This document shows, one piece after another, positions 4,293 through 52,830 of a stretch of DNA of 64,000 nt (position 1 is the stretch's first letter; every line of letters begins with the position of its first letter). The notes under the pieces were generated by a model. The model was not told the origin of the DNA and searched no databases. It worked only from the letters and a program-made list of their open reading frames with translations. This DNA is from Terriglobales bacterium (lineage in GTDB: Bacteria > Acidobacteriota > Terriglobia > Terriglobales > Acidobacteriaceae), in contig DASPSE010000411.1 of NCBI GenBank assembly GCA_035624085.1, positions 32,233-96,232 of the forward strand, written 5' to 3'. The translations under genes and the position numbers were made by a program.

Positions 4293-4356
4293 ACATAAAA
4301 CGGCTGGTAAGTGAAAGTCAAGCAAAAACGTATTCAGACCTTCATTCATTGTGTAC
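4293..4356 (-). promoter_or_regulatory. Bipartite hexamer site plus sigma70-like promoter upstream of TBDR1
   Basis: On the gene strand: GTACAC (4351-4356), N15, GAATAC (4330-4335), 8 nt containing a T-tract, TTGACT (4316-4321), N17, TTATGT (4293-4298). Same layout as six other sites in the window. Confidence 0.5.
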
Positions 4357-4527
4357 AGTTTCAATGATAGGAGTTGTGACGTCTTGTATTTGGGCATCTA
4401 GGACCTTGGCCGATGGATGATCGATACAGGAGGTAAAGAGTGTGCGCTGTCGCCCAGAAACAGCCCGTAGCGGCTCGCTTCACACTAAGCTCATTAAATT
4501 TCGATTGTTCAGGTCAGACTTGTGAGC

Positions 4528-5040
4528 CTATTCAAGTGCCGCCACACGCGGATGTCTTTCTAGATACTGGCTAACCAAGCTGGCGCACCGTTCGAGAAAC
4601 TCACGCAAGGCGTTATCAAACGCAGATTCAAAGAAACTATTGATGTCAATTTCCCCAACAACTTTGGAGGTCGCGAAGATGGGTATCACAATCTCAGATC
4701 GAGTAAATTCTGAGTCTGGCAAGTAACGCGGGTCGTCCTTGACCCGTTACACAACGATCGTTTTTCCGGCCGAAGCTGCCGCGCCGCAGATGCCGCTCTC
4801 GAAAGGTATAAGTTTGGTGGGGGTGTCCATTCCGGAATATGGTCCGAGTTGCAGCATTCTGGGGTTCTTTGAATCAACCACGTAGAATACTACCCAGTTA
4901 ATCCGCACCAGGCTCTCTCGTAGTCGGTCCTCGATTTTCTGCATAAGAGACTCGGGTGTTGATGTAGTGAGTGCATGTTGTCTGAACTCTTCGAGAAGTT
5001 TGCTGTAGACTTCCGCACTCATAGTGCCGCCACCTAACAT
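4528..5040 (-). pseudogene. GAF-domain protein (YebR / free-Met-sulfoxide-reductase-like fold) interrupted by an in-frame TAA
   Basis: ORFs 5040->4750 and 4722->4528 are in the same frame and are separated only by TAA at 4747-4749. The joined product (..INWVVFYVV..LGPYSG..GICGAAASAGKTIVV*RVKDDPRYLPDSEFTRSEIVIPIF..GEIDINS..) aligns end to end with single-domain GAF proteins of about 165 aa. Confidence 0.65.
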
Positions 5041-5094
5041 CTCGCTGACATCGCAGAAATTCTTACATCGATTCAGTGAGGTCTTTCTCCCCGA

Positions 5095-6240
5095 TTACGC
5101 GCAGAAAATGGATGCGGTAGCAAGCAGCGCATCATGGCAGGTGAGGACTTCGCTGAGGTTGCACCATTCCTCAACAGCGTGCGCTCCTGCTCCACCAGAA
5201 CCGAATATAACGGTCGGAATACCTGCAGCGGCGATCAACGCCGCGTCTGTCCACCCGCTGAATCCCTGAAAGCGTGGCTCCCGTTTCAATTGGATAGCCG
5301 CTGCTTTGCGCAACGTTGTTACAATCAGTTCTGTTTCGGGCACCTCCAGCGGTTCGCGAACTAGCCCGGTCGTGAACGTTCCTTTGAATCTTGGATTCGG
5401 TTTCGACTCTTGATCCAGGATCGACTTTATTTCATCCTGAATTTTAGTCCGGCTCTCACCCGGAATGGTCCTCCGCTCGACGCTGAGTCTGCAGTGTTCT
5501 GGATACGAAGAAAGTTCCTGTCCTCCACTGATTAATGAAGCATGAATTGATGCCGGACCGAGCAGAGGATGTCGTGGACCTTGCGCCAATATTTGGTTCA
5601 GACGGTCCACACCATTTAAGACTTTGCCCATCGCTACGATCGCGTCGACGCCCAAATCTGGCCGGGAGCCGTGAGCAGCAACACCCGAGGTTTCCACCGT
5701 GAACCAAGCAAAGCCTTTATGAGCGATGACGATATCTAGAGCCGTAGGTTCGGTAACAATTGCCGCGTCTGCGGATACTCGCTTCAAGACGGATTCAGTT
5801 CCAATGCTCGCATGTTCTTCATCACACACCGCGGTTAGGATTATGTCTCCACGAAATCGGAGGCGGGCAGCAGACGCAAGGGTTAGCATCGCAGCAGCGA
5901 CACCGGATTTCATGTCGTAGGATCCACGCCCAAAGAGCTTGTCGCCATCAACGCGTGACGTGTGCGGATTTTTCATGCCAGTGACACCAACAGTATCGAT
6001 GTGCCCATTCAGAAGCAGAGAACGACCGCCGCCCGTGCCGGGTACTCTGGCAATTACACTGACCCTTCCCGGTCGGGGTTCATCAAGCTCGACGCTCGCG
6101 CCAGCTTTTTGGAGCCAGTCCGCTATGTATGCGGCGATCTTGGCTTCACCTGCTCCGCCACGCACGAGTTCAGGATTTACCGAATCGATTGAAACGAGAG
6201 CTTCGATGAGATCGCGAACCTGATCTGGTTGTGTGCTCAT
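5095..6240 (-). CDS. M20 family metallopeptidase (ArgE/DapE-type deacylase)
   Basis: 381 aa with LLLNGHIDTVGV, GRGSYDMKSGVAA and a ..DEEHASIG.. metal-ligand pattern typical of acetylornithine deacetylase / succinyl-DAP desuccinylase relatives. Confidence 0.85.
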   Translation of the reverse strand: MSTQPDQVRDLIEALVSIDSVNPELVRGGAGEAKIAAYIADWLQKAGASVELDEPRPGRVSVIARVPGTGGGRSLLLNGHIDTVGVTGMKNPHTSRVDGDKLFGRGSYDMKSGVAAAMLTLASAARLRFRGDIILTAVCDEEHASIGTESVLKRVSADAAIVTEPTALDIVIAHKGFAWFTVETSGVAAHGSRPDLGVDAIVAMGKVLNGVDRLNQILAQGPRHPLLGPASIHASLISGGQELSSYPEHCRLSVERRTIPGESRTKIQDEIKSILDQESKPNPRFKGTFTTGLVREPLEVPETELIVTTLRKAAAIQLKREPRFQGFSGWTDAALIAAAGIPTVIFGSGGAGAHAVEEWCNLSEVLTCHDALLATASIFCA

Positions 6241-6282
6241 TGTTGGTCATTCGCCAGCGTTTGCACGAACCAACCCCTTTTA

Positions 6283-6347
6283 ACTGTATCGACCTCTCAA
6301 AGGAAGTCAAGAACAAACATGTACACAAGAGTGACGGCGTAGTATAC
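6283..6347 (-). promoter_or_regulatory. Bipartite hexamer site plus sigma70-like promoter upstream of the M20 peptidase gene
   Basis: On the gene strand: GTATAC (6342-6347), N15, GTGTAC (6321-6326), N10 (atgtttgttc), TTGACT (6305-6310), N16, TACAGT (6283-6288). Lies in the divergent intergenic region shared with dpaL. Confidence 0.5.
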
Positions 6348-6396
6348 GATCTGCGGCCGAGGTATGTTAGCTTTCGAGAAGGGGCTCGATTCGAAC

Positions 6397-8074: not shown

Positions 8075-8746
8075 ATGAAAGCTTCACTTTTACAGTCTCG
8101 TCAGGCCAGCGACAACGGTCGTATTCCTCTACGCACGGATCTGCGCCGTAAAGTACTGGAGCGGATCCTCAACGGGAAGCTCTCTCCTGGAGTTCGCGTT
8201 AACGAGTCGCGGTTGGCCAAAGAGTTAAGCGTCAGCCGAACGCCTCTTCGTGAGGCGCTCTTCCAGTTAGAACGCGAGGGATTCGTACGCTCGGACAGAG
8301 ATCGCGGTTTTTCAGTGGAGCCCATGAGCGCACGTGAAATTCGCGAACTCTACCCGATGTTGTGGACACTTGAGTGCCTTGCACTTCGCTTGTGCGGCCC
8401 CCGCGCAACGCTGACCGTTCCTTCGCTTACCAGACTCAATAACGAGTTGCGTACTACGCGCAACCCGAAACGCGCTCTCATTCTGGACAATAGCTGGCAT
8501 GAAACACTCCTGGCTTCTTGTCCTAATCGCCGCCTCCAAGATGCTATTCAGGGGTTGCGACTGGCGATACGGAGATACGAACTCCTTTATATGCGGGAAC
8601 TTCCTTTGATCAACGTTTCTGTTCACCAGCATCAGGAGATCATCAAAGCGGTCAAGGACGGGGACACAGCACTCGCATTGGAGAAGCTGGAAGAAAATTG
8701 GCGGTTCAGCATGGAGGAACTTCTCGTCCGTGTGGGAGAACCTTGA
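8075..8746 (+). CDS. GntR-family transcriptional regulator, FadR subfamily (FCD C-terminal domain)
   Basis: Winged-HTH region RVNESRLAKELSVSRTPLREALFQLEREGFV, then an all-helical FCD-like C-terminus (..WHETLLASCPNRRL..HQHQEIIKAVKDGD..). The ATG at 8075 is chosen over the longer ORF start at 7898. Confidence 0.85.
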   Translation: MKASLLQSRQASDNGRIPLRTDLRRKVLERILNGKLSPGVRVNESRLAKELSVSRTPLREALFQLEREGFVRSDRDRGFSVEPMSAREIRELYPMLWTLECLALRLCGPRATLTVPSLTRLNNELRTTRNPKRALILDNSWHETLLASCPNRRLQDAIQGLRLAIRRYELLYMRELPLINVSVHQHQEIIKAVKDGDTALALEKLEENWRFSMEELLVRVGEP

Positions 8747-10249: not shown

Positions 10250-11911
10250 CTATTGTGCCGAAGGTTTCTTATTCCCACGCCCTCGGATTGCCCGGCCCGG
10301 CAAGGCGTCGGTTGGTTTTCCTTCGGAGACCACCGCCTGTCCGTTCACGAACAAATAACGCACGCCTACCGAATAATGGTTGGGATCCTCAAACGTGGCG
10401 ACGCCGGCGATGGTTTTTGGATCGAATACAGCCACATCTGCGAATTTTCCGGTGGCCAACACGCCTCGGTCTGTCAGTCTCAGAGTCGAAGCTGCAAGAG
10501 AGGTCATCCGCCGGATGGCCTCCTCCCAGCTCATCATATGTTGTTCACGCACGTAGGTGCCGAGCCAGCGCGGAAATGTGCCCAGATTCCGAGGATGTTG
10601 AAGCGGCATTAGTTGGATTTTGCTCGCAAGGTCTGTGGCAGATCCATCGGACCCTACAGACACGTACGGCTGGCGCATGACCTCCTGGAGAGTGTCTTCG
10701 TGATTATTCAAATCAATCACCAACCCTTCGCCTTTTTGCTCAAGCACAACATCCATGTAGGCGTCATCCGCTGAAATGTGCCGCAATGCTGCGACTTCCG
10801 ATACGAGTTTTCCATTTACCTTCGGGTCATTCACACTCAGCCGGACGTTCTGCCAGCCGATGCGCGCATAATATGGCGGATCAGTCTGGAATCCTCTTGC
10901 GATGCGCTTGCGTTGTGCCGGATCGCGCAAGCGGGCTAGCATGGCCTCGCGCCCTCCGGACAGTGCCCACGAAGGTAAGTAGTCAGCGAGTCCAGTGATT
11001 CCCCATGTATAAGGATAGGCATCGCCCGTCACATTCAACCCGCGGTTTCTTGCTTCTTCAATGATGGGAAGAAACTTGGGCGCTGACCAAGAAGCAATTG
11101 AATTCAGATGAAAGAAATGTACTGGAATGCCCGCCTTTTCTCCAATGGTAATGGCCTCGCGGATGGCTTCGGGATCTTCCCCGTTGATCGTGCGGGCGTG
11201 GGTTGCGTAAATTCCTCCTGCCGGTGCGACTTCCCTGGCCAGCGCGATCAGCTCTTCGGTGGACATGTAAATGTTGGGGACATAGCTTAATCCGCTGGCA
11301 AGCCCCATAGCGCCTTCCGCCATTGCGTCGCGCACAATCTTCTTCTCTTCCTCAATTTCCGCGGGTGTCGCCACACGATTGTCATAACCCACAACCACCG
11401 CTCGGACAGTGCCGGATCCAATATAAGAGCAGAAATTTACCGCGTTCCCCTTTTTCTCCAGTGTATCGAGAAATCCACCGAGGGTCGTCCATGTCGGTTT
11501 GCTGCCGTCGACGAAAGTCAACTCGTCGCGTTTTCCGCCCAAGGGTCCCATGGAAGAATCTTCACCATAAACTTCGGTGGTTACGCCTTGTAGGCTGAAG
11601 GACGGGCCGTGTGGCATAAGCAGGCGGGTCTCGTCCGAGTGGCTATGCATATCTATGAAACCGGGTGTCACCATTAATCCGCTGGCGTCGACTGTGAGCG
11701 GTGATTCGCCGTCCACCTTTCCAATGGCAGTGATGCGATCTCCCCGAATCGCCAGATCTTCGACGACTCCGGGTGCACCGGTTCCGTCAATCACAGTCCC
11801 GCCACGGAGAATCACATCGTACTTCTCCTTTTTTACGCAGCCACTAAGGAGAGATAAACCAAGCAATAGCAATCCTCCCCAGAAGGTGGTTCGTACGATC
11901 TTCGTTTTCAT
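10250..11911 (-). CDS. N-acyl-D-amino-acid deacylase (D-aminoacylase), lipoprotein
   Basis: 553 aa with lipobox LSLLSGC. YDVILRGGTVIDGTGAPG..LAIRGDRITAIG..PGFIDMHSHSD is the characteristic D-aminoacylase / amidohydrolase N-terminus. Confidence 0.85.
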   Translation of the reverse strand: MKTKIVRTTFWGGLLLLGLSLLSGCVKKEKYDVILRGGTVIDGTGAPGVVEDLAIRGDRITAIGKVDGESPLTVDASGLMVTPGFIDMHSHSDETRLLMPHGPSFSLQGVTTEVYGEDSSMGPLGGKRDELTFVDGSKPTWTTLGGFLDTLEKKGNAVNFCSYIGSGTVRAVVVGYDNRVATPAEIEEEKKIVRDAMAEGAMGLASGLSYVPNIYMSTEELIALAREVAPAGGIYATHARTINGEDPEAIREAITIGEKAGIPVHFFHLNSIASWSAPKFLPIIEEARNRGLNVTGDAYPYTWGITGLADYLPSWALSGGREAMLARLRDPAQRKRIARGFQTDPPYYARIGWQNVRLSVNDPKVNGKLVSEVAALRHISADDAYMDVVLEQKGEGLVIDLNNHEDTLQEVMRQPYVSVGSDGSATDLASKIQLMPLQHPRNLGTFPRWLGTYVREQHMMSWEEAIRRMTSLAASTLRLTDRGVLATGKFADVAVFDPKTIAGVATFEDPNHYSVGVRYLFVNGQAVVSEGKPTDALPGRAIRGRGNKKPSAQ

Positions 11912-12025: not shown

Positions 12026-12068
12026 CGACAACTAGAAAACCGTACACCACAAACAAAAAACTGTATAC
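12026..12068 (-). promoter_or_regulatory. Bipartite hexamer site upstream of the D-aminoacylase gene (weakest copy)
   Basis: On the gene strand: GTATAC (12063-12068), N15, GTGTAC (12042-12047), N10 (ggttttctag), TTGTCG (12026-12031). The -35 is poor and no convincing -10 was found. Confidence 0.35.
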
Positions 12069-17288: not shown

Positions 17289-17352
17289 GTACACGATCAC
17301 TGTCGTCCTGTATACGAATTTTTATTGACTCTTACTGCTCAATGGGTATAAC
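17289..17352 (+). promoter_or_regulatory. Bipartite hexamer site plus strong sigma70-like promoter, now facing a dead TBDR fragment
   Basis: GTACAC (17289-17294), N15, GTATAC (17310-17315), N9 (gaattttta), TTGACT (17325-17330), N16, TATAAC (17347-17352). Also sits about 50-80 nt upstream of the divergent M28-PLP-metC genes. Confidence 0.5.
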
Positions 17353-22117: not shown

Positions 22118-22225
22118 GGTTCCCCCAAGTCTCTCGCGGGGACCTACAGGTGTAACGCCTAGGCTTACCCGCCGGATGTCCAAATCACCGATTCGCCTTC
22201 CCCCGTGCCGGATCTTGTCAGACTG

Positions 22226-23605: not shown

Positions 23606-23639
23606 AAACTATCTCCCAAGAGTGTTTAAGAGCGCTGCA

Positions 23640-23790
23640 TCAGAATGCGATCCGGGCGCTTAACTGAAGAGAGCACTCCTCAATGCAAACTTCTTGAACT
23701 GCGATACCGAGATGGCCTGTGTTCCGGAACCGAATCCGCGTAAGAACGGGATTCGCGCAAGAACATCTCCGGGTGACGTCTTCGCAACAG
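23640..23790 (-). pseudogene. Remnant of the 3' end of a TonB-dependent receptor gene
   Basis: tcagaatgcgatccgggcgcttaac matches the last 25 nt of TBDR2 (25417..) and TBDR3 (31419..). It translates to ..LQLSARIAF* (compare MMLSARITF*, MQISARITF*). Another frame gives GSGTQAISVSQFKKF (compare GPGTQAVSLSLFKS). An internal deletion separates the two pieces. Confidence 0.6.
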
Positions 23791-23814
23791 CTTGTCCCAG
23801 CTTCGTCCGATAAC

Positions 23815-25239: not shown

Positions 25240-25416
25240 ATCGCCTCCCAGGAGATGTGGTCACTTTCATGACCCGCAGTAAACATGGGACTCATCGTTC
25301 TGAATTCCAATCCCTGCCTCGCCTTTGCGAACGCTGCGGGTGGGCAGTCGATGCGTGGCGCGTCCTGCCATCATCACCGGACCCGATTTGAGAGCCGGAC
25401 TGTTGTGAACGCCCAA

Positions 25417-28400
25417 TCAGAAAGTGATCCGGGCGCTTAACATCATTTGACGCGGACCTGCGGCGTCGACGGTTTGTACGTTTGAGATCGTGTTGAAATT
25501 GGGCAGGCCAATATCCAGATTTGTTGGCGGCTGATAGTTGGGATGGTTGAACACGTTCGCTACCGATGCTCCCAGTCTAAATTGCACCCGCTCCTGATAG
25601 AGTGGAATCGATTTGAATAGCGACAAAGATACGGCTTGGGTGCCAGGACCGACCACCGAACCCACCTGCGAGTCCCCAAAGCGGCCAATGTTGTTCGCCG
25701 GAACTGAAAAGGCTGCGGGGTTGATCCACTCGTTAATCGACTTATGTGCGGGATACAGAGGTACCCCGGGAACTCTATCTGCGCGCTCGTCGGTTCCATT
25801 GATAATGTCCCAGCCCGTTCCGGAGGGATCGACGCCATTTGCCTGTACCGACAAGAAAGGCCCCGTCTGGAACAACACAACGCCAGCCAGTTCCCATCGG
25901 CTCACGACCTGGTCGAGCAGCGCATTGCTCTTGTAGGTGAACGGTAAATTGTAAATGAAGGTGGTCTGGAAGCGTTGGCGGCGAGTGAAAGAGACGTTGC
26001 CGTAGTCATAGTTTATATCGTAGATATTGCTCGGAACGCCTCCATCGTCGCCTGAGGTGAACGAGCGTGGAGAGGCGCCTTCGACATTGGACAAGTTTAC
26101 AGCGTGGTTGTAGCTGGCTTCGAACTGGAGGCCATGGGAAAAGCGCTTGTTTAGATCGATCGTAAAGGCTTCGTAATTGGTTCGCCCCCCGGTTGCATAA
26201 TCATAGATCGGGCCAATTTGAGGAAATGGCTCTGTTGCTGCCACCGCGGCATAACCTAGCGTGTTGGGTTGAACTTGATTGATCTGCGGCAAGTAGCCCT
26301 GCTGGCTGCCATGACTTCCGTCATAGGTGAGCCGGAGACCGGTTTGGAAACCGAGGTCGCGCTCGTAGGTCAGGTTCCACTGGTGAACACGGGGATCCAG
26401 ATGATGATAATCATAGGCATCACAGATAATGTCGGTTCCCGGCACCGCTTGCGGGGTGGGGAAAGGATGTGGGCTCGAGGCAGTTAATGATAAAGCCGGG
26501 ATGTTGCCGTTCGGCCCGCTAAAGCTATTCGTGAAGAAACCATCAAAACCGGACTCAATGGCGAACATACCTTGGATGACTTCGCTATAGAGCGTCTGGT
26601 AGTAGAGTCCATAGCCGCCTCGCAGAACGTTCTTGCTATCCCTGGTAATGCGCCATGCAAACCCAAGTCGTGGGCCAAAATCGGTTGTCGGTGTATAACG
26701 CCCGATCGGCGGAAGTCCTAGCTGCGACGCGAGTACGAGGGGCGTCGGAGCGAGGGAAGTCGCCACGTTCGGATTCACGTAACCGGCCGCTATTTGATTC
26801 GGCAGCACGAAATCGCCATGCACTGATCCGACGCCGGTGCTGCTTGGACAAACTGAAGGCACGTACGTGTTTATTGTAGCGTTGCAGTTGATAGGGGTAT
26901 AGATGTTCGGATCGAAGTTCGCCTCGTTCCAGCCGTAATCCTGCATGACGGGCTGATATTCCCAGCGCAGACCGAAGTTGAGCGTGAGGCTCGGCGTCAC
27001 TTTCCAACTGTCCTGGCCGAAGAAAGCCCAAATGTTCGACCAACCGTCAAATGGATCCTTGGTGCTTGTCGCAACCGCCGTTTCATCCGGGATTCCCAGC
27101 AGAAAAGCGGCAAACGGATTCCCAATCAATGATGCGCTTTCGGAGTTATTGAAATCATACGATCCATAGCGGTTCTGGAATGAGTTGGAGCGATAGGCGG
27201 TCAGGTGCTGGAAACTTCCGCCGAATTTAAACGTGTGATTGCCCCGCACGATTGTCAGGTTATCGAGCGCTTGGACGACTCCGCTCCTTTGCACCTGGTC
27301 GTAAATGCTGGATGTCCCTGTGAAACCAGAAATCTCGAAATCCGGAATGACATTGAAACTGGGCGGCGGGAAACCAGTGGGTAGCAGTGTACTGAGACCG
27401 ATTTGTTGGGCAACGGTAGCGCCTAACAATTTGTTAAACCCAAAGTTCTGGGGCGAGCCGCTCCAGCCCGCGCGGATTTCATTGACCACATTCGAGTTAA
27501 AAACGTAGTTGTAGGCGCCCATCACAGCCCAGTATTTCTGGTAAGTAGTAAAGGGACCCGCCAAGGGTGTGCCGGCGTTATCCTCACCGTTCAGATTTAG
27601 CGCTATTGCGTTGGGTGTTTGCGATAAATTTCTGATCTTGTAAGTCCCCCGGATGAACAACGACTGCTTCGCGTTGATGACCTCATCGAGCCGCAAATCG
27701 CCCTGGTTGCTGCTGATCGGGGTAGGAAAATTCTGGACATAGTTATTCACGATAGAGTTGGCTGGCCCGGTATTCGGCAGCGGGAACATGTACTGCAGCA
27801 CGTTTTGCGCGTATGGCGAGATCAGGTTCTTTGGAATTTGGTTGCTGGGGAAGAACGTACATGGCGGCGAGCTGCATGCCGTGTCAGTGGGGCTGAAGGG
27901 ATTGCCAATTGGTGTCGTAAAAACGGAAAGATCGCCACTGCGCATCGCTAGCGACGGCACGCTGTCGACTATCACGGTCTGGTTGGGCAGACGCAATCCC
28001 TCGTATGCCATGAAGAAAAACGTCCGGTCCTTCACGATGGCCCCGCCGAGACTGGCCCCGAAATCGTTCATATGGAGCGCTGGAAGCGTGTGGCTGATCG
28101 GGTTCCGGGCGTCGAAATCAGTGTTCATAAAATTGTCGTAAGCGTTGCCGTGAAACGTATTGGTGCCGCTTTTGCTGATGGTGGTGACATTGGCTACGGA
28201 GCCGTATTCCGCTGTGTTGTCGCTTTCATTGATGTGAATTTCCGAGATGGCGTCAAACGCCGGAAACAGCTCCGTCGCTGGGCCCTGGGCAAAAGGGCTT
28301 TGGGTGCTGAGGCCATCGATGCTGGTTGTCACCTGGGCCGGTCTCAAGCCGGCGACGGAAATATTGTTGCTATTGTCGATTTCCACTCCGGGCTGCGTCG

Positions 28401-28956
28401 TCAGCGTGGTCCACGCGCTTGTCGAGCCCGAAGCGCGGGTCGCGATGGCGACGGGAAGATCAACGAGTTCTTTTGACGTCTTCGTCTCGGAAATATCGGA
28501 AACCTCGGTGGAAATGGGGGCTTCTGCGGCCGCATTCACTTCGATCTTCTCGTTTGCGCTGCCCACCCTCAGGCTGCGATCAACACGGATCTTTTGCTGG
28601 GTGAGAAGCTGAATATTGGTAACTTCCTCGGACGCGAATCCCGGCGCTTCCATACGAATCTGATATCCGCCGGGCATGAGATTCAGCACCTCGTAGTTGC
28701 CGTTGGCATCGGTCTTCGTGGTTCTCCGCTCGCCAGTACCGACGTTTGTCACAGTAATCGCGACCCCCGGAACGACGGCTCCCGAGGGATCGCGCACTGT
28801 GCCGACCAGAGAACCAAAGGTTGTTTGAGCCGAACCGGTAACAATTAACAAACTCAACGTGCCGAACAAGACGCCAAAGATGAGAAGCCCCTGTAACCAG
28901 GCAGCGAATCTTTGTTCCCTCTGACGCGGAATAGCCTCTCGCGGTGAAATGGCCAT
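25417..28956 (-). CDS. TonB-dependent receptor with CarboxypepD_reg domain (TBDR2)
   Basis: 1179 aa. GTVRDPSGAVVPGVAITVTNVGTGERRTTKTDANGNYEVLNLMPGGYQIR, ISKSGTNTFHGNAYD, FFFMAYEGLR, C-terminal ..SARITF. Confidence 0.9.
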   Translation of the reverse strand: MAISPREAIPRQREQRFAAWLQGLLIFGVLFGTLSLLIVTGSAQTTFGSLVGTVRDPSGAVVPGVAITVTNVGTGERRTTKTDANGNYEVLNLMPGGYQIRMEAPGFASEEVTNIQLLTQQKIRVDRSLRVGSANEKIEVNAAAEAPISTEVSDISETKTSKELVDLPVAIATRASGSTSAWTTLTTQPGVEIDNSNNISVAGLRPAQVTTSIDGLSTQSPFAQGPATELFPAFDAISEIHINESDNTAEYGSVANVTTISKSGTNTFHGNAYDNFMNTDFDARNPISHTLPALHMNDFGASLGGAIVKDRTFFFMAYEGLRLPNQTVIVDSVPSLAMRSGDLSVFTTPIGNPFSPTDTACSSPPCTFFPSNQIPKNLISPYAQNVLQYMFPLPNTGPANSIVNNYVQNFPTPISSNQGDLRLDEVINAKQSLFIRGTYKIRNLSQTPNAIALNLNGEDNAGTPLAGPFTTYQKYWAVMGAYNYVFNSNVVNEIRAGWSGSPQNFGFNKLLGATVAQQIGLSTLLPTGFPPPSFNVIPDFEISGFTGTSSIYDQVQRSGVVQALDNLTIVRGNHTFKFGGSFQHLTAYRSNSFQNRYGSYDFNNSESASLIGNPFAAFLLGIPDETAVATSTKDPFDGWSNIWAFFGQDSWKVTPSLTLNFGLRWEYQPVMQDYGWNEANFDPNIYTPINCNATINTYVPSVCPSSTGVGSVHGDFVLPNQIAAGYVNPNVATSLAPTPLVLASQLGLPPIGRYTPTTDFGPRLGFAWRITRDSKNVLRGGYGLYYQTLYSEVIQGMFAIESGFDGFFTNSFSGPNGNIPALSLTASSPHPFPTPQAVPGTDIICDAYDYHHLDPRVHQWNLTYERDLGFQTGLRLTYDGSHGSQQGYLPQINQVQPNTLGYAAVAATEPFPQIGPIYDYATGGRTNYEAFTIDLNKRFSHGLQFEASYNHAVNLSNVEGASPRSFTSGDDGGVPSNIYDINYDYGNVSFTRRQRFQTTFIYNLPFTYKSNALLDQVVSRWELAGVVLFQTGPFLSVQANGVDPSGTGWDIINGTDERADRVPGVPLYPAHKSINEWINPAAFSVPANNIGRFGDSQVGSVVGPGTQAVSLSLFKSIPLYQERVQFRLGASVANVFNHPNYQPPTNLDIGLPNFNTISNVQTVDAAGPRQMMLSARITF

Positions 28957-29010: not shown

Positions 29011-29077
29011 ACAGTAGACCCAGCTGTCAGTAGGTGTCAAGCAGAAAAATGTATACTGGAGAGCATTAATTGTGTAC
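29011..29077 (-). promoter_or_regulatory. Bipartite hexamer site plus sigma70-like promoter upstream of TBDR2
   Basis: On the gene strand: GTACAC (29072-29077), N15, GTATAC (29051-29056), N10 (atttttctgc), TTGACA (29035-29040), N18, TACTGT (29011-29016). Confidence 0.5.
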
Positions 29078-29320: not shown

Positions 29321-31195
29321 CTACTTCGCCGCAGCGCGCGGCTTGAGAAGGCCGGAAAGGGTGTCTGGGGCAGAGTTCCTCTCGAGCTGCGGGTATTGCA
29401 ATCCCTTGTGATGGTCGATGGTCGCCTTGAAAATGGCAGATTGGCTTTGGACGGTCATCTTCATCGGAGCGGAAGTTCCATGATCCGCCGCAATCGCATC
29501 GCGCAAGTTCTGCGCAGACCACGTACGGCCGTTGACGGCTAATACCTTCATGCCCGGGCCGAGGCCCGCCTTCCACGCCGGCGAATCGCGCACGACATCA
29601 ACGATGGTGCCATCGGAGTGGATGAAAAGACCGATCGAGTAACGCTCTTCGACGGTGTGATGATCGGTATCGCGGGCGGTGAGCACGGGGCCGGGAACAT
29701 CGCCATAGGTCAAATTCCAGCCGCTGGCGGCGAGTCCTTCGAGCGGCGGTTTGTCGGTTTTATATACGCCGTGCTCAAAAAAATCTGCCCAATCGTAAGG
29801 GGCGATGGCACTGAGAGCGTTGACCACGTCATCGAGCGTGTACGGTTTGACGGTGGGCGCACCACCGGGCGGGCCGAAAAAGGCGCGACAGAAGTCGTCG
29901 AGCGACTTCTGGCCGGAGGTCCTACTCCGGATGATCTGGTCGGCCTCCAACCAGATCAGGAGCGACTCATCGTAGTAGTCGGTACTCCGGCGCAAGGATT
30001 CCCACTCGCCGCCGCCATAGAGAAGTTGGACGGACACGGCGGTGTCTTCCAAGGGTCGCCACTGGCGCCCGGTGCGATGTTCCATCTCGGCGGCGATAAT
30101 TGCCGCGTAGTCGCGGGCCTGCTCCGGGGTAAACAGGCCTGAACGAGCAGCCAAAACCCAATTCAAGTAACGGGTCAAGCCTTCGTAAACCCAGAGCAAG
30201 CTCCCCTGCATGGGATCCTGATAATTTTTCGTGTACAAATCGGCGGGCCGCCGATATTTCCCATTCCACGAATGCACGTACTCATGAGGGAGGAGATAAA
30301 GGGAAGCGACACGGTCCGATTGATCGAGAAAACCGCGCTCGCGCAAAGTGATATCGGTGGACTGATGATGTTCGGTGCCGTCTTCACCGACTTCGTCGGA
30401 AAGGGCGAGCAGAAAGACGTAATGCTCGTAGTGACGGGCGCCGAACAAGGCGTCGGTTTCCCGAACCATTCTTTTAAAGTTTTCGAGCAGCTGCGGTGAC
30501 TGATCGAGAGCTTCCTCGCTGTCCGCAGCAACACTCATGGCGACCGGGATCGGGCCATTGTCCAGAGTAAAGGTGCGGAAATGCTCTCCCGCGAGCAGCG
30601 GGGAATCGACCAGAGTGGTCAGTGAGACCACGGGGAACTTAACCGTATCGTTGGCCAATGCCTTGCCGGGCATGGCACAGGCAAACTTCCAGCCCGAAGG
30701 CAAACGAATCTCCCCCTGAATATCGATGTCATCCGTGTTTACGCCTTGCGGATAGAGCAGAACCGCATTCCAAAACAGATAGAACAGAAAAGGGGTTGCC
30801 TCGTGGGGTTGGAGAGCGCAATCGAGGGCGATATCGAGTTTCTGCGCTCCCGGGGGTATCTGGAGGTGGAAGGCGAACATATCTACGGGGTCGCGCGTCC
30901 AGGAGACCGGCTGGCCGGCGACGGAGAATTTCATCCACACCACCCTGTTCAGCGGGCCTGAAGGCGTGTGCTCTCCTGGAATCCATTTCGGAAAAACGAG
31001 AGTGAGGGAGCCGGGCTTCGCTGGAATTTCCAGCTCTGCATGAATGAGCTTGCGACGGACGTCTGTAGCGTCCACACGCAAGGAAATGGCCTGCCGATCC
31101 GCTCCAACCGCGGCCGTGGTAAGAACGAGCAAGAACACAAGCACTATTGACTTTGGCAGCAGACTCGCCAACTGTGTGGAAGCTTTAACCCACAT
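29321..31195 (-). CDS. M61 family glycyl aminopeptidase with C-terminal PDZ domain
   Basis: Signal peptide (MWVKAST..LTTAAVGA); HEYVHSWNGKYRRP (HExxH plus the downstream pattern typical of M61); PDZ-like C-terminus AGLGPGMKVLAVNG. ATG at 31195 preferred over the ORF start at 31327. Confidence 0.85.
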   Translation of the reverse strand: MWVKASTQLASLLPKSIVLVFLLVLTTAAVGADRQAISLRVDATDVRRKLIHAELEIPAKPGSLTLVFPKWIPGEHTPSGPLNRVVWMKFSVAGQPVSWTRDPVDMFAFHLQIPPGAQKLDIALDCALQPHEATPFLFYLFWNAVLLYPQGVNTDDIDIQGEIRLPSGWKFACAMPGKALANDTVKFPVVSLTTLVDSPLLAGEHFRTFTLDNGPIPVAMSVAADSEEALDQSPQLLENFKRMVRETDALFGARHYEHYVFLLALSDEVGEDGTEHHQSTDITLRERGFLDQSDRVASLYLLPHEYVHSWNGKYRRPADLYTKNYQDPMQGSLLWVYEGLTRYLNWVLAARSGLFTPEQARDYAAIIAAEMEHRTGRQWRPLEDTAVSVQLLYGGGEWESLRRSTDYYDESLLIWLEADQIIRSRTSGQKSLDDFCRAFFGPPGGAPTVKPYTLDDVVNALSAIAPYDWADFFEHGVYKTDKPPLEGLAASGWNLTYGDVPGPVLTARDTDHHTVEERYSIGLFIHSDGTIVDVVRDSPAWKAGLGPGMKVLAVNGRTWSAQNLRDAIAADHGTSAPMKMTVQSQSAIFKATIDHHKGLQYPQLERNSAPDTLSGLLKPRAAAK

Positions 31196-31418
31196 GAGCC
31201 AACCTCCGTCGCCACATTCACCGAGGAACCCGCCGCGCAGAGCAAAGCTGTTCGCCCGCGCGCCCTCCAACAATTTGTCGCCCAACGCTGCCTGCTTCAT
31301 ACGGTCGACCGACAATTCACAGGCCAATGCCGGGAAGAGGCGTTTCGCGCTTAGAAGGCGCCGACCCAGAGAGGCATGGCCGCTAGGCTCGGCCGAGCCG
31401 GAGTCTTGTGACGCCCGA

Positions 31419-34400
31419 TCAGAAAGTGATCCGCGCGCTTATCTGCATGGCGCGCGGGCCGGAAGCGTCGGCGCTTTGCATGCCGGAGATCGTGCCAAAA
31501 GTATCCAAGCCGAGATCCAGCGCCGGCGGAGCGAAGTTGGGATGGTTGAACGCATTGGCTACCTGCGCTCCAATCTTCAGTTTCGCGCGCTCGTAAATGG
31601 GAAACGTTTTGAACAGCGATAGCGACACGGCTTGCGTTCCGGGACCGACCACCGAACCCACCTGCGAGTCCCCCATACGGCCAATGTTGTTCGCCGGAAT
31701 CGCAAAAGCTGCCGGATTTACCCAGGCATTGACAGTCTGATGCGCAGGATACTTGGGCACACCGGGAACGATATCGGCGCGCGGGTCAGTGTAGAAATTC
31801 TCGAAGTTGTCTCCGCCAGGGTCGGCGCCGGCCGCCTGGACCGAGAGGAACGGGCCGGTCTGAAACAGCAGAACGCCAGCTACCTCCCATCCGCTCACGA
31901 CGTGGTCGAGCAGCGCATTGCTCTTGTAGCTGAACGGTAAATTGTAAATGAAGGTCGTCTGGAAGCGCTGGCGGCGAGTGAAAGAGACGTTGCCGTAGTC
32001 ATAGTTGACGTCATAGATGTTGGTCACCTGACCGCCGCCCTCGAACTGAAAACTCGTCGAGGTGCCGCCTTCGGCATTCGAGAGGTTCACGGCGTGGTTG
32101 TAGCTGGCTTCGAACTGGAGGCCGTGGGAGAAGCGCTTGTTCAAGTCGATAGTAAATGCATTGTAATTGCTGCGTCCGGGGGTTGCGTAGACATTGATTG
32201 CGGACCAAAGGGGATAGGGCTCTTGCACGCCCGGTGTGCCAAACCCCGAGGTATTGAGCGGGACCTGGTTTGCGTTTTCGGCGGCGCCCAGAGCGCTGCC
32301 ATGACTTCCGTCATAGGTGAGCCGGAGACCGGTTTGGAAACCGAGATCGCGCTCGTAGGTCAGGTTCCACTGGTCAACACGGGGGTCTTTATAGTTCCAG
32401 TCGAAGGCGGCGCAGAAAATCACACTGCCGGGGATCGCCAGGTTGGAGGGGAAAGGCCTAGCGTTCGGGAGGCTGCTTGAAGGGAACGCCAACTGCGGCA
32501 ATCCGTTCGAGGCAAAAGCGTTGTTGAAGCCAGCGATGTAGCTGGACTCGGCGTCAAGCATCTCGTTAACCACGTTGCTGTAAAGCGTCTCATAGTAGAC
32601 GCCAAAGCCTCCACGGAGGACATTCTTGCTATCTCGGGTCATGCGCCAGGCAAACCCGAACCGCGGTGCAAAGTCGGTTTTTGGGTTAAAGCGCATGTCC
32701 GAGGGAAGACCGAGCTGGGCTGCGGTGTAGAGGGGTGTCGGCGCAATGGAAGCCAGCAAAAGCGGATTCAGATACTTGAGCGCTCTGTCATCCGGTATCA
32801 CCAGAGCGCCATTCACGGTTTGCCCGTTGACTACAGTAGAGGTGTTGCCGTAGAAGTTGCCCACGTTGCCGGCATAATCCTGCATAATCGGCTGGTATTC
32901 CCAACGCAAGCCGTAGTTGAGCGTCAGGCTCGGCGTTACTTTCCAACTGTCCAGGCCGTAGAAAGCCCAAAGGTTGGAGTAGGAGTCCACCCCATCTTTG
33001 AGCACCGAGGAAACTTCGGTGAAATCGGGAGTTCCGAGCAGGAACTCGGCGAACGGATTGCCGATCGTTGAGCCGACGGCGGAAGAACCGTTGTAAGTGT
33101 ATTCTCCGAGCCGGGCATAGCCGTCGTTGCTGAAGTAAGATGCGCCGAAGTGCTGGAACTGGACGCCGAATTTGTAGGTGTGGTTGTGGTGCATGATCGA
33201 TAGGTTGTCGACGCCCTCAGAGACTCCACTGTGCGACGCATATTGATGCACGTTGCCGGTCTCGTCAAAACCAGAGATATTGAAATTGGGAACGAGATCG
33301 TAATCGGGAGGAGCTTGGGGCAGAAATGACGTCAGGCCGATCTGGTTGGCAATCGTGCCGGCGGGCATGGGAAAGGTGTACTGGTAAGGGGTGTTCGTCC
33401 AACCGCCACGGAGCTCGTTAATGACGTTCGAGCTAATGATGAAGTTCCAGCCACCGGCCAGATTTAAATACTTATAAGTAAACGAAATCGGGCCGATCAA
33501 GGGGGTCGCGTCGGAATAGTACGTGCCTGGCGCGTCGACCTGATCCACGTGCTTGTAGGTGAGCCGGGCGAAAACCGAATGCCGCGTGCCGATATTCTGA
33601 TCCACGCGCACGTCGCCCTGGTTCGTGGAGATGGGTGTCGGGAAATTATCCACGTAGTTGTTCACGAGTGAGTTAGGGCCGCCGGTGTTCGGCAGCGGGA
33701 ACAGATATTGCAGGGTCCTCTGCGCGAATGGCGAGATCATCGACTGAGGAATCTGGTTGTTGAGGAAGGGCTGGCCGGTGAAGGGATTCGTAATTGGCGT
33801 TGAGTAGGCCGAAAGATCGCCGCTGCGCAACGCCAGAGAAGGCACGCTTTTGACGAGCACCGTCGCGCCGGGCTTGCGCAACCCCTCGTAATCGATGAAG
33901 AAGAACGTCCGATTCTTCACCACGGGCCCGCCGAGACTGGCCCCAAAATCGTTCATGTGGAGCGGCGTTACCTTGGAACTGAAGTAGTTCCGGGCATCGA
34001 AATAGTCGTTCTGGAAATAATCGTAGAGGGAACCGTGCAAGGTATTGGTGCCGCTCTTGGAGATGGTCGTGACGTCGGCGACGGAGCCGTATTCCGCCGA
34101 GTTGTTCACTTCATTCACGTGAATTTCCGAGATGCCTTCAAAGGAAGGAAACAGCTCGGCCGACGGCCCCATCTCGTAGGGGCTCACGGTGCTGAGGCCG
34201 TCGATGGAGGCTGCCACCTGGGCCGGTCTCAACCCGGCGACGGAAATGTTGTTGCTGTTATCGATTTCCACCTCGGGCTGCGTCGTCAGGGTGGTAAACG
34301 CACTGGTCGAGCCCGATGCGCGGCTGGCGATAGCGACGGGAAGATCGAGCAGTTCCTGTTCGGTCTTCGTCTCGGCAATATGAGAGACCTCGGTGGCAAT

Positions 34401-34841
34401 CGGGGCCTCCACGGCTGCGCTCACCTCGATCTTCTCGTTTGCGCTGCCTACCCTCAGGCTGCGATCAACACGGACCGTCTGCTGGGTGAGGAGCTGAATA
34501 TCGGTAACTTCCTCGGATGCGAATCCCGGAGCTTCCAGACGAATCTGATATCCGCCGGGCATGAGATTCAACACCTCGTAGTTGCCGTTGGTATCAGTCT
34601 TCGTGGTTCTCCGCTCGCCGGTACCTACGTTGATCACAGTAATCTTGGCACCGGGGACGACGGCTCCCGAGGGATCGCGTACTGCGCCGACGAGAGAAGA
34701 AAACGTTGTTTGAGCCCAACCGCTCTCAACCAGCAGAGTCAAAGTCAAAATCGAGACGCCGACGAGGCGGAGTCGCCGTAACAAGGCACAAGACCCTCGG
34801 TGTCTCTGATGCAGAATAGACGGTTGCCTTGAGATAGGCAT
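31419..34841 (-). CDS. TonB-dependent receptor with CarboxypepD_reg domain (TBDR3), paralog of TBDR2
   Basis: 1140 aa. GAVRDPSGAVVPGAKITVINVGTGERRTTKTDTNGNYEVLNLMPGGYQIR, ISKSGTNTLHGSLYD, FFFIDYEGLR, C-terminal ..SARITF. The N- and C-terminal thirds are nearly identical to TBDR2. Confidence 0.9.
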   Translation of the reverse strand: MPISRQPSILHQRHRGSCALLRRLRLVGVSILTLTLLVESGWAQTTFSSLVGAVRDPSGAVVPGAKITVINVGTGERRTTKTDTNGNYEVLNLMPGGYQIRLEAPGFASEEVTDIQLLTQQTVRVDRSLRVGSANEKIEVSAAVEAPIATEVSHIAETKTEQELLDLPVAIASRASGSTSAFTTLTTQPEVEIDNSNNISVAGLRPAQVAASIDGLSTVSPYEMGPSAELFPSFEGISEIHVNEVNNSAEYGSVADVTTISKSGTNTLHGSLYDYFQNDYFDARNYFSSKVTPLHMNDFGASLGGPVVKNRTFFFIDYEGLRKPGATVLVKSVPSLALRSGDLSAYSTPITNPFTGQPFLNNQIPQSMISPFAQRTLQYLFPLPNTGGPNSLVNNYVDNFPTPISTNQGDVRVDQNIGTRHSVFARLTYKHVDQVDAPGTYYSDATPLIGPISFTYKYLNLAGGWNFIISSNVINELRGGWTNTPYQYTFPMPAGTIANQIGLTSFLPQAPPDYDLVPNFNISGFDETGNVHQYASHSGVSEGVDNLSIMHHNHTYKFGVQFQHFGASYFSNDGYARLGEYTYNGSSAVGSTIGNPFAEFLLGTPDFTEVSSVLKDGVDSYSNLWAFYGLDSWKVTPSLTLNYGLRWEYQPIMQDYAGNVGNFYGNTSTVVNGQTVNGALVIPDDRALKYLNPLLLASIAPTPLYTAAQLGLPSDMRFNPKTDFAPRFGFAWRMTRDSKNVLRGGFGVYYETLYSNVVNEMLDAESSYIAGFNNAFASNGLPQLAFPSSSLPNARPFPSNLAIPGSVIFCAAFDWNYKDPRVDQWNLTYERDLGFQTGLRLTYDGSHGSALGAAENANQVPLNTSGFGTPGVQEPYPLWSAINVYATPGRSNYNAFTIDLNKRFSHGLQFEASYNHAVNLSNAEGGTSTSFQFEGGGQVTNIYDVNYDYGNVSFTRRQRFQTTFIYNLPFSYKSNALLDHVVSGWEVAGVLLFQTGPFLSVQAAGADPGGDNFENFYTDPRADIVPGVPKYPAHQTVNAWVNPAAFAIPANNIGRMGDSQVGSVVGPGTQAVSLSLFKTFPIYERAKLKIGAQVANAFNHPNFAPPALDLGLDTFGTISGMQSADASGPRAMQISARITF

Positions 34842-34895
34842 GAGATTCCCCCACTGTCCAGAAATGCGCGGCGTGTCTCACCCTTTGGGGCGGGA

Positions 34896-34961
34896 AGAAT
34901 AGTACCGGTCCCTAGTGAAAGTCAAGCCAAAAATGTATACCCCGCATCGCTAATCGTATAC
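34896..34961 (-). promoter_or_regulatory. Bipartite hexamer site plus sigma70-like promoter upstream of TBDR3
   Basis: On the gene strand: GTATAC (34956-34961), N15, GTATAC (34935-34940), N9 (atttttggc), TTGACT (34920-34925), N18, TATTCT (34896-34901). Confidence 0.5.
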
Positions 34962-36364: not shown

Positions 36365-36381
36365 GAGATGAGGATAGCGAA

Positions 36382-38037
36382 TTGCCGGAAAGGAACCCGA
36401 ACACCTTCTTGTTGCGCTTGAGCGCTTGGTTGCTTCTTGCTGCGACTGGCTGGGTGTGTGTTTCCCGGCCGGCGCTAGCTCAAACCGACGTCGGCTCACC
36501 CGGCGAAAAGATCGGTTGGGTGCCCCGGGCGATTCTCGAACGCCCGGTTCCAGTGCGTCAGGGGATTGGCAACCTTCATGAAAAAGTAACCACGTCTTCG
36601 CTAGAGGCTCAGACGTTTTACGATCAAGGACTTGATTATTTCTCTGGGTATGACTGGATCGAGGCGGCTCGGTCGTTCAATCAGGCGCTGCGTCTCGATC
36701 CAAGTTTGGCAATGGCATATATCCGGCTGAGCGAAGTATACACTCAGCTACAGGACAACTCCGCGGCGCGCATTGCCTGCAACAAAGCCCAGTCGCTTTC
36801 CAGCCGGGTGAGCGAGCGCGAACGGGCCCGGATTCAGATCCGTGCCGATCACCTTGACTACATCGAAGATCCTGATTCCGAGCAAAAGTACGTTGTTTGG
36901 AGAAAGGCGATCAGTGAGGCGCTCACGGCGAATCTTACGGATTGGGGGCTGTGGATCCTGCTTGGCAATGCTATCGGCGACGGCGAAGGTATAGAATCGG
37001 TAGCGGACTACGAAACTGCGCTCGCGTTCTCTACAAACAATTCCGCGGCCCATCATATTCTCGCCCATACATTCGAACATCTCGGTCAGACGCAACAAGC
37101 GCTTGCGCATGCCGAAGCCTTTGTGCGCGTGGCTCCCTCCATTCGTCATGCCCATCACATGCTGGGACATGAATTGCGAAGACTCGGACGGACCGCAGAG
37201 GCGATCACGGAATTTCGCAAGGCAGACGAACTGGAAAACTCCTATTATCGTACCGAGAATATTCCCGCCAGATATGATTGGCACCGCGCTCACAATCTTC
37301 TTCTCCTCGCCATGTGCTACGAGGCGTTGGGGCAGATGAAAGCCGCGGCACCGCTTCTGCACGAGGCCTTTTCGCTTCCCGCCTATACCGACACCGCCGA
37401 GTATTATCGGCGCGAATGGCCGGATTTCCTGCTCGATCGCGGCCGGCCGGAGGAATCGCTCACGGCAGCGCGGGAATTGATCGAAAGCAGTGCCTGGCCC
37501 TCGGGCCGCTTAGCCGGTCATGAGTCGGCCGGCAGAGCCCTGCTGGCACTGCACCGCAGCGATGAAGCCAAGAACGAGCTCGAATTGGCGGAACGAGAGA
37601 TGGAACGCCTTCCGGCGCATTTGTCCAGCGAGCTGCCCGGAAGCGGAATCTTGAGCGGTGAAATATTGCTACGCGATCAAAAGCAGCCGGAAGCCGACGC
37701 AGTGTTCAAGAAGGTCGAAGCCGACCTTCGAGCTATGCCCGGGGCCGACACCTGGAGTCTGGCGTTGTTTCAACTCCAGTTTATCGCCCAGTTGGCTCGG
37801 CAATTTGGCGATTGGAATCTCGCGGAATTCACTGCCCGACAAATGATCGAGCATGATCCCAGCTATGCCGGCGGCTACTACGCCCTGGGCCTGGCTGCGG
37901 AGCACTCAGGTGATACGGCTTCGGCACGTCGGCAATTTCAGATGGCGGAAAAGCTTTGGGGTAGCGCCGATCCTGGATTACCCGAGCTCGTCCACCTCCA
38001 GGAAAGCTTGGCGGCAACGAGGCATGGCTCTGATTGA
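36382..38037 (+). CDS. Exported TPR-repeat protein
   Basis: 551 aa with signal peptide (..CVSRPALAQ) and multiple TPR-like helical pairs (AQTFYDQGLDYF..WIEAARSFNQALRLDP, AMAYIRLSEVY.., YYALGLAAEHSGD). The start is a TTG taken from the ORF track. Confidence 0.7.
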   Translation: MPERNPNTFLLRLSAWLLLAATGWVCVSRPALAQTDVGSPGEKIGWVPRAILERPVPVRQGIGNLHEKVTTSSLEAQTFYDQGLDYFSGYDWIEAARSFNQALRLDPSLAMAYIRLSEVYTQLQDNSAARIACNKAQSLSSRVSERERARIQIRADHLDYIEDPDSEQKYVVWRKAISEALTANLTDWGLWILLGNAIGDGEGIESVADYETALAFSTNNSAAHHILAHTFEHLGQTQQALAHAEAFVRVAPSIRHAHHMLGHELRRLGRTAEAITEFRKADELENSYYRTENIPARYDWHRAHNLLLLAMCYEALGQMKAAAPLLHEAFSLPAYTDTAEYYRREWPDFLLDRGRPEESLTAARELIESSAWPSGRLAGHESAGRALLALHRSDEAKNELELAEREMERLPAHLSSELPGSGILSGEILLRDQKQPEADAVFKKVEADLRAMPGADTWSLALFQLQFIAQLARQFGDWNLAEFTARQMIEHDPSYAGGYYALGLAAEHSGDTASARRQFQMAEKLWGSADPGLPELVHLQESLAATRHGSD

Positions 38038-38130
38038 GCCACAGCGCGATTACTTCTTGTGCTCGTTCGCCATATCAGGTGTGTGTCCCCCGAGCTCCGC
38101 TAATCGGTACATCCTTGCAGCCAAACCAGC

Positions 38131-38196
38131 GTAGACAATCGCAGGCACATTGTATACAAGTTTCCTGTTGACTTTGCGCACCGGCTGTCCTACGTT
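38131..38196 (+). promoter_or_regulatory. Bipartite hexamer site plus sigma70-like promoter upstream of the CapA-like gene
   Basis: GTAGAC (38131-38136), N15, GTATAC (38152-38157), N10 (aagtttcctg), TTGACT (38168-38173), N17, TACGTT (38191-38196). Confidence 0.5.
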
Positions 38197-52829: not shown

Positions 52830-52830
52830 A

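Follow-up and report, generated by a model that had tools for sequence, protein, structure and literature searches.

Paired GTATAC boxes upstream of TonB-dependent receptor, peptidase and amidohydrolase genes as a candidate double operator of an FCD-type GntR regulator in a Terriglobales bacterium

GntR-family regulators that bind GTATAC palindromes have been characterized in two systems. DipR of Alcaligenes faecalis is a dimeric repressor of the GntR/FadR family that controls dipicolinate catabolism; it binds GTATAC or GAATAC (GWATAC) with footprints of 23-24 bp, serves as the one regulator of six promoters in its catabolic cluster, is autoregulated, and is released from DNA by dipicolinate (PMC11472048). 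Atu1419 of Agrobacterium fabrum, an FCD/VanR-group GntR regulator (PDB 6z74 and related), contains an FCD effector domain with a metal site and places one dimer on each ATGTATACAT palindrome, where Arg45 of the recognition helix reads the G, while its tetramer, a dimer of dimers, represses by looping between palindromes located 109-190 bp apart (PMC7797058). Here we describe seven pairs of GTATAC-type boxes in a 64,000-nucleotide stretch of the genome of a soil bacterium of the Terriglobales (contig DASPSE010000411.1, positions 32,233 to 96,232; hereafter the window, numbered from its first letter), located upstream of genes for TonB-dependent receptors (TBDRs), peptidases and amidohydrolases, and we consider the GntR protein encoded at 8075-8746 as their candidate regulator. 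The window boxes share with DipR the same 6-bp palindrome and the same tolerated variant, GAATAC, but the DipR sites are single hexamers lying over the -35, -10 or +1 positions, whereas those of the window form in-phase pairs upstream of -35; pathway and phylum are unrelated, and the likeness rests on the operators, not on the protein sequences. Atu1419 likewise has two palindromes per control region, although these are separated by 109-190 bp with looping and those of the window by 21 bp on one face of the helix, and its similarity to the window protein is weak (E about 1e-6) and confined to the winged-helix region. Because the dimers of DipR and Atu1419 bind one such palindrome, each window hexamer is best regarded as a complete dimer operator, which replaces the initial annotation's description of the hexamers as half-sites.

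FadR of Escherichia coli, GlcC and CitO also combine a GntR winged helix with an all-helical effector domain. Dual regulators of the FadR type can activate transcription from sites that overlap the -35 element or lie just ahead of it, and repress other promoters; such activation has reportedly been described for FadR at fabA, for GlcC and for CitO. These proteins differ from the window system in their ligands and operators (TGGTNNNACCA type), and they have one site at each promoter. As an analogy only, the polysaccharide-utilisation loci of Bacteroidota co-regulate TonB-dependent transporters with hydrolases of the imported polymer, much as the window would, but in the window the probable substrates are peptides, the candidate regulator is a cytoplasmic one-component GntR protein rather than a hybrid two-component or extracytoplasmic function (ECF)/anti-sigma system, and there is no SusD partner.

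All seven sites with the layout given in the initial annotation are present in the window (five exact, two with one mismatch, and close to none in shuffled sequence), and re-derivation from the sequence returned the same hexamer and -35 coordinates in every case. Pair 1 (4330..4356, minus strand, GTACAC-N15-GAATAC) lies upstream of TBDR1 and is followed by a T-tract, the putative -35 element TTGACT at 4316-4321 and the putative -10 hexamer TATGTT at 4292-4297. Pair 2 (6321..6347, minus strand, GTATAC-N15-GTGTAC) precedes an M20 peptidase gene of the ArgE/DapE type, with its -35 at 6305-6310 and the -10 hexamer TACAGT at 6283-6288, and is located 17-50 nt from the start of a divergent, split diaminopropionate ammonia-lyase gene. 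Pair 3 (12042..12068, minus strand, GTATAC-N15-GTGTAC) carries a degenerate -35, TTGTCG, at 12026-12031 and precedes a D-aminoacylase-like Amidohydro_3 gene. Pair 4 (17289..17315, plus strand, GTACAC-N15-GTATAC; -35 TTGACT at 17325-17330) faces an IS1595-truncated TBDR remnant and adjoins the divergent M28-PALP-cystathionine beta-lyase operon at its 5' end. Upstream of the string TBDR2-S41-S41-M14 lies pair 5 (29051..29077, minus strand, GTACAC-N15-GTATAC; -35 TTGACA at 29035-29040), upstream of TBDR3-M61 pair 6 (34935..34961, minus strand, GTATAC-N15-GTATAC; -35 at 34920-34925, -10 TATTCT at 34896-34901), and upstream of the PGA_cap (CapA-like) gene pair 7 (38131..38157, plus strand, GTAGAC-N15-GTATAC; -35 at 38168-38173).

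Exact matches to GTAYAC-N15-GTRTAC occur five times in the window (at 6321, 12042, 17289, 29051 and 34935) and in none of 100 dinucleotide-preserving shuffles; when one mismatch is allowed, eight matches are found against 0.08 expected. The eighth of these (9620-9646) lies inside an S-Me-THD-like gene, has neither T-tract nor -35, and is taken as a chance match. The initial annotation had called for a weight matrix of the seven sites, and a 39-column matrix scanned over the window separated them cleanly, at 35-47 bits, from the best unrelated position at 7.8 bits, a comparison that is partly circular because the matrix was built from the same sites, though the gap is large. Every intergenic GTATAC hexamer of the window (n=7) belongs to one of the sites, and all 14 site hexamers are GTATAC or a one-base variant of it (GTACAC, GTGTAC, GTAGAC, GAATAC). 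All copies are located at promoter positions and face genes, with the start codon 63-130 nt past the proximal hexamer. Beyond pair 7, the 38-64 kb part of the window contains no site; the seven promoters could drive essentially all genes from 0.3 to 43 kb.

Downstream of the boxes, the gap between the proximal hexamer and TTGACW measures 8-10 nt and always has TTT at +4..+6, and the -35 element is TTGACW in six of the seven sites, the amidohydrolase copy having TTGTCG instead. A sigma-70 consensus scan independently calls three of the seven modules (TTGACT-18-TATGTT, TTGACT-16-TACAGT and TTGACT-18-TATTCT), which are three of 11 promoter-like matches in 29 kb; the other four have weaker -10 hexamers. 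Agreement of the -10 hexamers with TATAAT extends to 3-4 of six positions, and if transcription starts 7 nt after the proposed -10, the 27-mer is centred at approximately -59 to -61. The leaders of TBDR2 and TBDR3 are paralogous, as are those of the TBDR remnant and the CapA-like gene, so the seven promoters are not fully independent. The initial annotation had argued from the non-homology of the downstream genes, an argument that is weakened because several of the modules are paralogous TBDR-type promoters. The M20 and amidohydrolase modules resemble each other only in functional elements.

The fused module can be followed into relatives. The strict pattern (site, TTT and TTGAC), scanned in one genome each of 185,579 species, gave eight matches, about the number estimated from base frequencies; one of the eight is a true relative, a Terriglobia metagenome-assembled genome (MAG) in which the TBDR2 orthologue (75% amino-acid identity) has kept site, promoter and leader. 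A similar scan of viral contigs gave one irrelevant match. With a slightly relaxed pattern, 55 loci were found in metagenome contigs, nine of which are relatives (GC content 0.54-0.58) with flanking genes 68-91% identical in amino-acid sequence. Their modules precede orthologues of TBDR2, TBDR3 and M20 as well as a further TBDR, and on one contig immediately precede an S41 peptidase gene; across these relatives, S41 or PGA_cap genes stand either behind a TBDR or directly behind the site. Orthologous sites were recovered for pair 2 (L030, L066, L069), pair 5 (L005, L057, L013/L058) and pair 6 (L037/L041/L058). Among the 16 canonical sites so defined, seven from the window and nine from relatives, the twelve box positions are conserved in 14-16 of 16 except the Y/R position, and TTT at +4..+6 is found in all 16. 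The distal box is flanked by A at -2 and by AT at +2/+3 in 14-15 of 16, which extends it to an imperfect 12-bp palindrome, while the 15-nt spacer is near random even among orthologues, as in the four M20 orthologues (tacgccgtcactctt, tataataataagatt, cataatggtaacatt and cataataataatagt). Fixed boxes with a drifting spacer are the mark of a protein-binding site under selection. The initial annotation had proposed such a site with a GntR-type GT..AC core, a proposal that agrees with this pattern and with the binding of GWATAC and ATGTATACAT by dimers of FadR/FCD GntR proteins (PMC11472048, PMC7797058). The module in its fused form is limited to one narrow and poorly sampled lineage within the Terriglobia. 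Beside the canonical sites of the metagenome matches there are no regulator genes, only transporters, enzymes and, approximately 2.7 kb off in L052, one LuxR-type response regulator; autoregulation at the canonical module is therefore not seen.

The candidate cognate regulator (8075..8746, plus strand, 223 amino acids) consists of a GntR winged helix and an FCD effector domain of the FadR/VanR type. Pfam assigns GntR (2.3e-13) and FCD (4.1e-16) to the product of 7898/8075-8746, and its closest PDB relatives are all FCD GntR regulators. It is the only transcription factor of the window; a search for other regulators, which included the small open reading frames (ORFs) of the 4267-5094 gap, brought up nothing but a split GAF-domain gene. 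Across the aligned homologues, the recognition helix VSRTPLREAL does not vary, nor does R55, which aligns with Arg45 of Atu1419 (ungapped phmmer range 27-100 against 17-90; alignment only). Two other regulator types were considered and set aside: a MocR-type (pyridoxal-phosphate-dependent GntR) protein, suggested by the two-turn spacing, was found neither in the window nor at any site-bearing related locus, and the T-N11-A architecture of LysR operators does not match boxes that are self-palindromic hexamers. A literature search for Acidobacteria, TonB, peptidase and GntR in combination gave no match.

Homologues of this protein, whose contexts were retrieved through GntR protein similarity alone, comprise close orthologues (88-93% identity), a more distant group (67-71%) and, at no more than 60%, a wide family in several phyla. 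Six contexts (53-90% identity) contain GTATAC boxes 20-21 bp apart, which in four cases immediately precede the operon that encodes the regulator itself. L066 and L069 (90%) have a rearranged gene order, with M28-PALP-GntR facing M14-PALP-S41-PALP and then M20, yet the GntR gene still stands within the peptidase cluster; of the two box pairs there, one is canonical and the other belongs to a different promoter context. L071 (67%) has three box pairs within 5 kb of the regulator, two just downstream of it, before a cysteine-dioxygenase gene, and one between asparaginase and amidohydrolase genes; none is fused to a T-tract and -35. L073 (59%), L074 (54%) and L075/76 (56%) have pairs or triplets of boxes immediately upstream of the operon PALP-(deformylase)-GntR or GntR-S41, and Ktedonosporobacter rubrisoli (Chloroflexota, 53%) has three GTATAC boxes with N14 spacing that begin over the -10 of a TTGACA promoter for PALP-GntR, a design also found in L074. 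Over 120 kb, the loci of GntR homologues contain 11 sites in total, whereas 1000 block shuffles gave 1.5 on average and never more than 6; two unrelated matches found by pattern only, in a Burkholderiaceae MAG and on contig L014, directly adjoin FCD-GntR genes. These comparisons support a link between the regulator and the boxes, as well as the earlier suggestion that one regulator, possibly this GntR protein, would co-control the uptake and peptidase genes; we consider it highly probable that the seven sites are its operators.

The explanation that we favour, tentatively and at somewhat less than an even chance for the whole of it, is ligand-relieved repression from a double operator. Each 27-bp element would bind the FCD-type GntR protein of 8075-8746 with one dimer per GTATAC-type palindrome, and two dimers 21 bp (two helical turns) apart would sit on the same DNA face with their footprints touching. 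In this Terriglobia lineage, the double operator would have become joined, 8-10 bp upstream, to a T-tract/TTGACT/TAnnnT promoter at no fewer than seven transcription units, which comprise three TBDRs and a remnant, M20, the amidohydrolase and the CapA-like/beta-lactamase-family genes, with S41, M14 and M61 in the operons, so that one regulator would tie outer-membrane uptake to the breakdown of peptides and amino acids. Without a small carboxylate or amino-acid-derived ligand, the protein would occupy both boxes; the promoter-proximal dimer would cover the T-tract up to the edge of -35 and exclude RNA polymerase (alpha-subunit C-terminal domain or sigma region 4), and the bound protein would also block the diaminopropionate ammonia-lyase and M28 operons that diverge from two of the sites. 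Once the FCD domain took up its ligand, the DNA would be released. We infer the binding, stoichiometry, sign and ligand of the regulator from the comparisons given above.

Once the regulator is assigned to the operator, repression appears to be the somewhat more probable sign. DipR and Atu1419, the two characterized GTATAC binders, are both repressors (PMC11472048, PMC7797058), and the boxes of the homologues overlap the -10 and leader of their own operons. The -35 elements of the window are near consensus and accompanied by a T-tract, which is untypical of activator-dependent promoters; with the proximal box at its centre, a footprint of approximately 23 bp would extend just to the upstream border of -35; and a substrate-induced catabolic regulon is a coherent design, which favours repression. 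The same regulator on the same double operator might instead be an activator or a dual regulator in the manner of FadR, GlcC and CitO, an alternative that we judge rather unlikely: in-phase dimers near -50 and -71 would bring RNA polymerase to promoters whose -10 elements are weak, while the bound protein would repress the divergent ammonia-lyase and M28 operons. Several features fit this proposal and weigh against repression, since no canonical site overlaps -35, -10 or the start; the distance to -35 is held to +/-1 bp (8-10 nt in 16 of 16 canonical sites, including orthologues with diverged spacers); the centre of the 27-mer near -59 to -61, given a start 7 nt after -10, is a classic class I activator position that leaves the core promoter elements free; and weak -10 hexamers (3-4 of six matches to TATAAT) with long, 18-nt spacers suit dependence on an activator. 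The fixed geometry may, however, be partly inherited, several modules being paralogous TBDR promoters. The activator-like position described in the initial annotation is correct as geometry, but the precedent of the family and the autoregulatory sites of the homologues favour a repressor.

Other observations weigh against the preferred assignment as a whole. The region upstream of the GntR gene (7649-8074, approximately 430 bp) contains no box; L030 has kept the M20/ammonia-lyase site without a GntR gene in the recovered 5 kb; the sites in L066/L069 lie 3-6 kb away from the GntR gene rather than in front of it; boxes are missing from the locus of the Longimicrobium homologue (51% identity); and an SRTPxREAL helix is also present in many FCD regulators whose operators differ, which means that it is no proof of specificity. 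The first two of these points would suit a different factor from outside the window, such as a GntR paralogue or a MocR-type or LysR-type protein, that binds the boxes and leaves the FCD-GntR protein as a local regulator of its own operon, as would the facts that the genome extends beyond the 64 kb of the window and that GT..AC cores are common to many GntR subfamilies. We regard such a factor as improbable, because across L071, L073, L074, L075, L077 and the window no gene other than this GntR family recurs beside the boxes, none of the site-bearing loci was found to contain a MocR, a LysR or another recurrent regulator, and the pattern-only matches in unrelated taxa also adjoin FCD-GntR genes. 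A cassette without any dedicated regulator, in which paralogous TBDR promoters were duplicated and the hexamers act as an extended promoter or UP-like element, would account for the likeness beyond the motif of the TBDR2/TBDR3 and the dead-TBDR/CapA leaders, and for the alternative positions of S41 and PGA_cap genes in relatives, which suggest promoters kept after rearrangement. It is nevertheless very improbable, since box pairs without T-tract and -35 occur in other promoter positions and phyla, always beside the GntR family, the spacers of orthologues vary freely while the boxes stay fixed, and the M20 and amidohydrolase modules have only functional elements in common. In the widest reading, which is rather doubtful to us, an ancestral self-repressing FCD-GntR protein of this uncultured lineage would have turned into a master switch, possibly a class-I-like activator, through the spread of a lineage-specific operator-promoter cassette, and would command a regulon for TonB-powered uptake and digestion of necromass peptides in which several TBDRs and more than ten peptidases and amidohydrolases are united. 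Many of the genes concerned have a D-amino-acid or peptidoglycan-peptide flavour, being D-aminoacylase-like, S58/DmpA-like, of the beta-lactamase family, diaminopropionate ammonia-lyase and CapA-like.

FadR/FCD regulators that bind GTATAC and control several promoters are on record, and the locus presents no new kind of mechanism; it would be a previously undescribed regulon and operator arrangement of a known regulator type, in a phylum with largely unexplored regulation. Transcriptional regulation in Acidobacteriota has been almost unstudied, yet these bacteria are dominant in many soils, and their repertoires of TBDRs and peptidases are very large. If the proposed double operator is correct, it supplies a concrete regulator-operator pair, a peptide-utilisation regulon that co-controls outer-membrane uptake and peptidases, and a sequence signature by which such loci could be spotted in metagenomes. 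It also illustrates how the operator of a self-regulating GntR protein may be recruited to many promoters inside one narrow lineage.

The genes of the window were assigned to families by Pfam and NCBIfam. The putative targets are TBDR1 (CarboxypepD_reg + Plug + OMP_b-brl_4; 262..4266, minus strand), the M20 peptidase gene (5095..6240, minus), the Amidohydro_3 amidohydrolase gene (10250..11911, minus), the string of TBDR2, two S41 peptidases and an M14 carboxypeptidase (19490..28956, minus), which probably forms an operon given its single strand and short gaps, the string of TBDR3 and an M61 aminopeptidase (29321..34841, minus), and the string of PGA_cap, a beta-lactamase-family protein and a further Amidohydro_3 (38255..42840, plus), in which PGA_cap likely starts at approximately 38255-38261. 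The three large TBDRs are of the CarboxypepD_reg/OMP_b-brl_4 type typical of Acidobacteriota, and the peptidases of the window comprise M20, M28, M14, M61, two S41 and a truncated S58. Also encoded are two Amidohydro_3 proteins, a beta-lactamase-family protein, PGA_cap (CapA-like), a cystathionine beta-lyase and an IS1595 transposase. The dead TBDR fragment named in the initial annotation is weakly supported by a blastx match to residues 244-271 of TBDR1 (E=0.01). Between this remnant and an N-terminally truncated S58 (DmpA-like) peptidase gene stands the IS1595-family transposase (17742-19432), an arrangement that suggests an IS-mediated deletion in the peptidase cluster.

The diaminopropionate ammonia-lyase gene beside pair 2 is split into overlapping ORFs at 6364-7230 and 7175-7648 (plus strand), which match positions 24-265 and 264-400 of NCBIfam PRK08206. 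The gene is split in the same way in L030 (75% amino-acid identity) and in contig L001, which is identical to the window, and the orthologue in L066/L069 is intact as a single gene of 417 amino acids; the split could represent a conserved frameshift or a genuine two-piece gene. A small GAF-domain gene (4528-5040, minus strand), similar to free-methionine-sulfoxide reductases, lies between the TBDR1 promoter and M20 and is broken into ORFs of 97 and 64 amino acids; the break probably marks a pseudogene or a frameshift from sequencing. Further along, a gene string at 49577-55760 (minus strand) encodes a DHDPS-family protein, a molybdenum hydroxylase of the xanthine-dehydrogenase family (MoCoBD, Fer2_2, FAD_binding_5) and a DpaA-like dehydrogenase, adjoins two octopine-dehydrogenase-like genes and 5-oxoprolinase subunits, and has no GTATAC box pair; it may be an N-heterocycle or dipicolinate-type catabolic cluster.

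Additional elements were noted in the leaders. A 24-nt block, AGCGGCCNTGCCANGTGNTTCTCT, occurs in identical register in the leaders of the dead TBDR and the CapA-like gene (17370-17393 and 38212-38235, plus strand); no other copy was found in the window or in 78 fetched loci, the block has no Rfam match, and it may be a leader RNA element or the trace of a promoter transplantation. The 5' leaders of TBDR2 and TBDR3 (28957-29034 and 34842-34919, minus strand) share a G/C-rich segment, TTTCCAGCCA...GGGGTGGG...GCCG, which is also kept in the orthologues on L005 and L057 and may form a hairpin. A scan of the whole window found no Rfam family at gathering score, so the conserved leaders are not known RNAs. 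Near pair 3, a second T-tract with TTGACT (12085-12097, plus strand) lies 23 nt from the distal box in the opposite direction and points into the 3' end of the convergent cystathionine beta-lyase gene, with no gene after it; this element may be a relic or an antisense promoter. Two further candidates for the nature of the module were rejected: a mobile repeat (of the miniature inverted-repeat transposable element or repetitive extragenic palindromic type), as the copies have only boxes, T-tract and -35 in common, their spacers are unrelated and all stand at promoter positions; and, for the window, the operator itself as promoter, as the flanks of the distal box give no TTG -35 there. The latter idea does fit L073 and L075.

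Related patterns occur beyond the lineage. The conserved sequence GTAYAC-N15-GTATAC + TTT + TTGAC recurs in Clostridia/Peptostreptococcaceae from several metagenomes (L008, L010, L025, L033, L039, L042), and no FCD-GntR gene was detected near these copies. On L044 (GC 0.62), a box pair at 96-122 with T-tract and TTGACT lies upstream of a family-5 peptide-binding protein gene of an ABC transporter, on a contig without a regulator gene, and may reflect the same regulon logic in another acidobacterial lineage. In the Burkholderiaceae MAG, GTAYAC-N15-GTATAC stands beside the FCD-GntR gene (L004, 4690-4716; also L029 and L032), divergent from a Rieske/LigXa-like oxygenase gene, and on the unrelated contig L014 (GC 0.47) the same pattern at 6223-6249 is directly beside its FCD-GntR gene; in-phase double GTATAC operators may thus be more widespread among FCD regulators. 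Directly before the GntR homologue, a PALP gene of approximately 325 codons, similar to serine/threonine dehydratases, is found in L073 (4090-5076), L076 (7141-8136) and L077 (4997-5971). This gene is conserved (46-58% identity) in Acidobacteriota and Chloroflexota, the window lineage having no PALP partner next to GntR, and the substrate or product of the PALP enzyme is a candidate effector of the regulator family.

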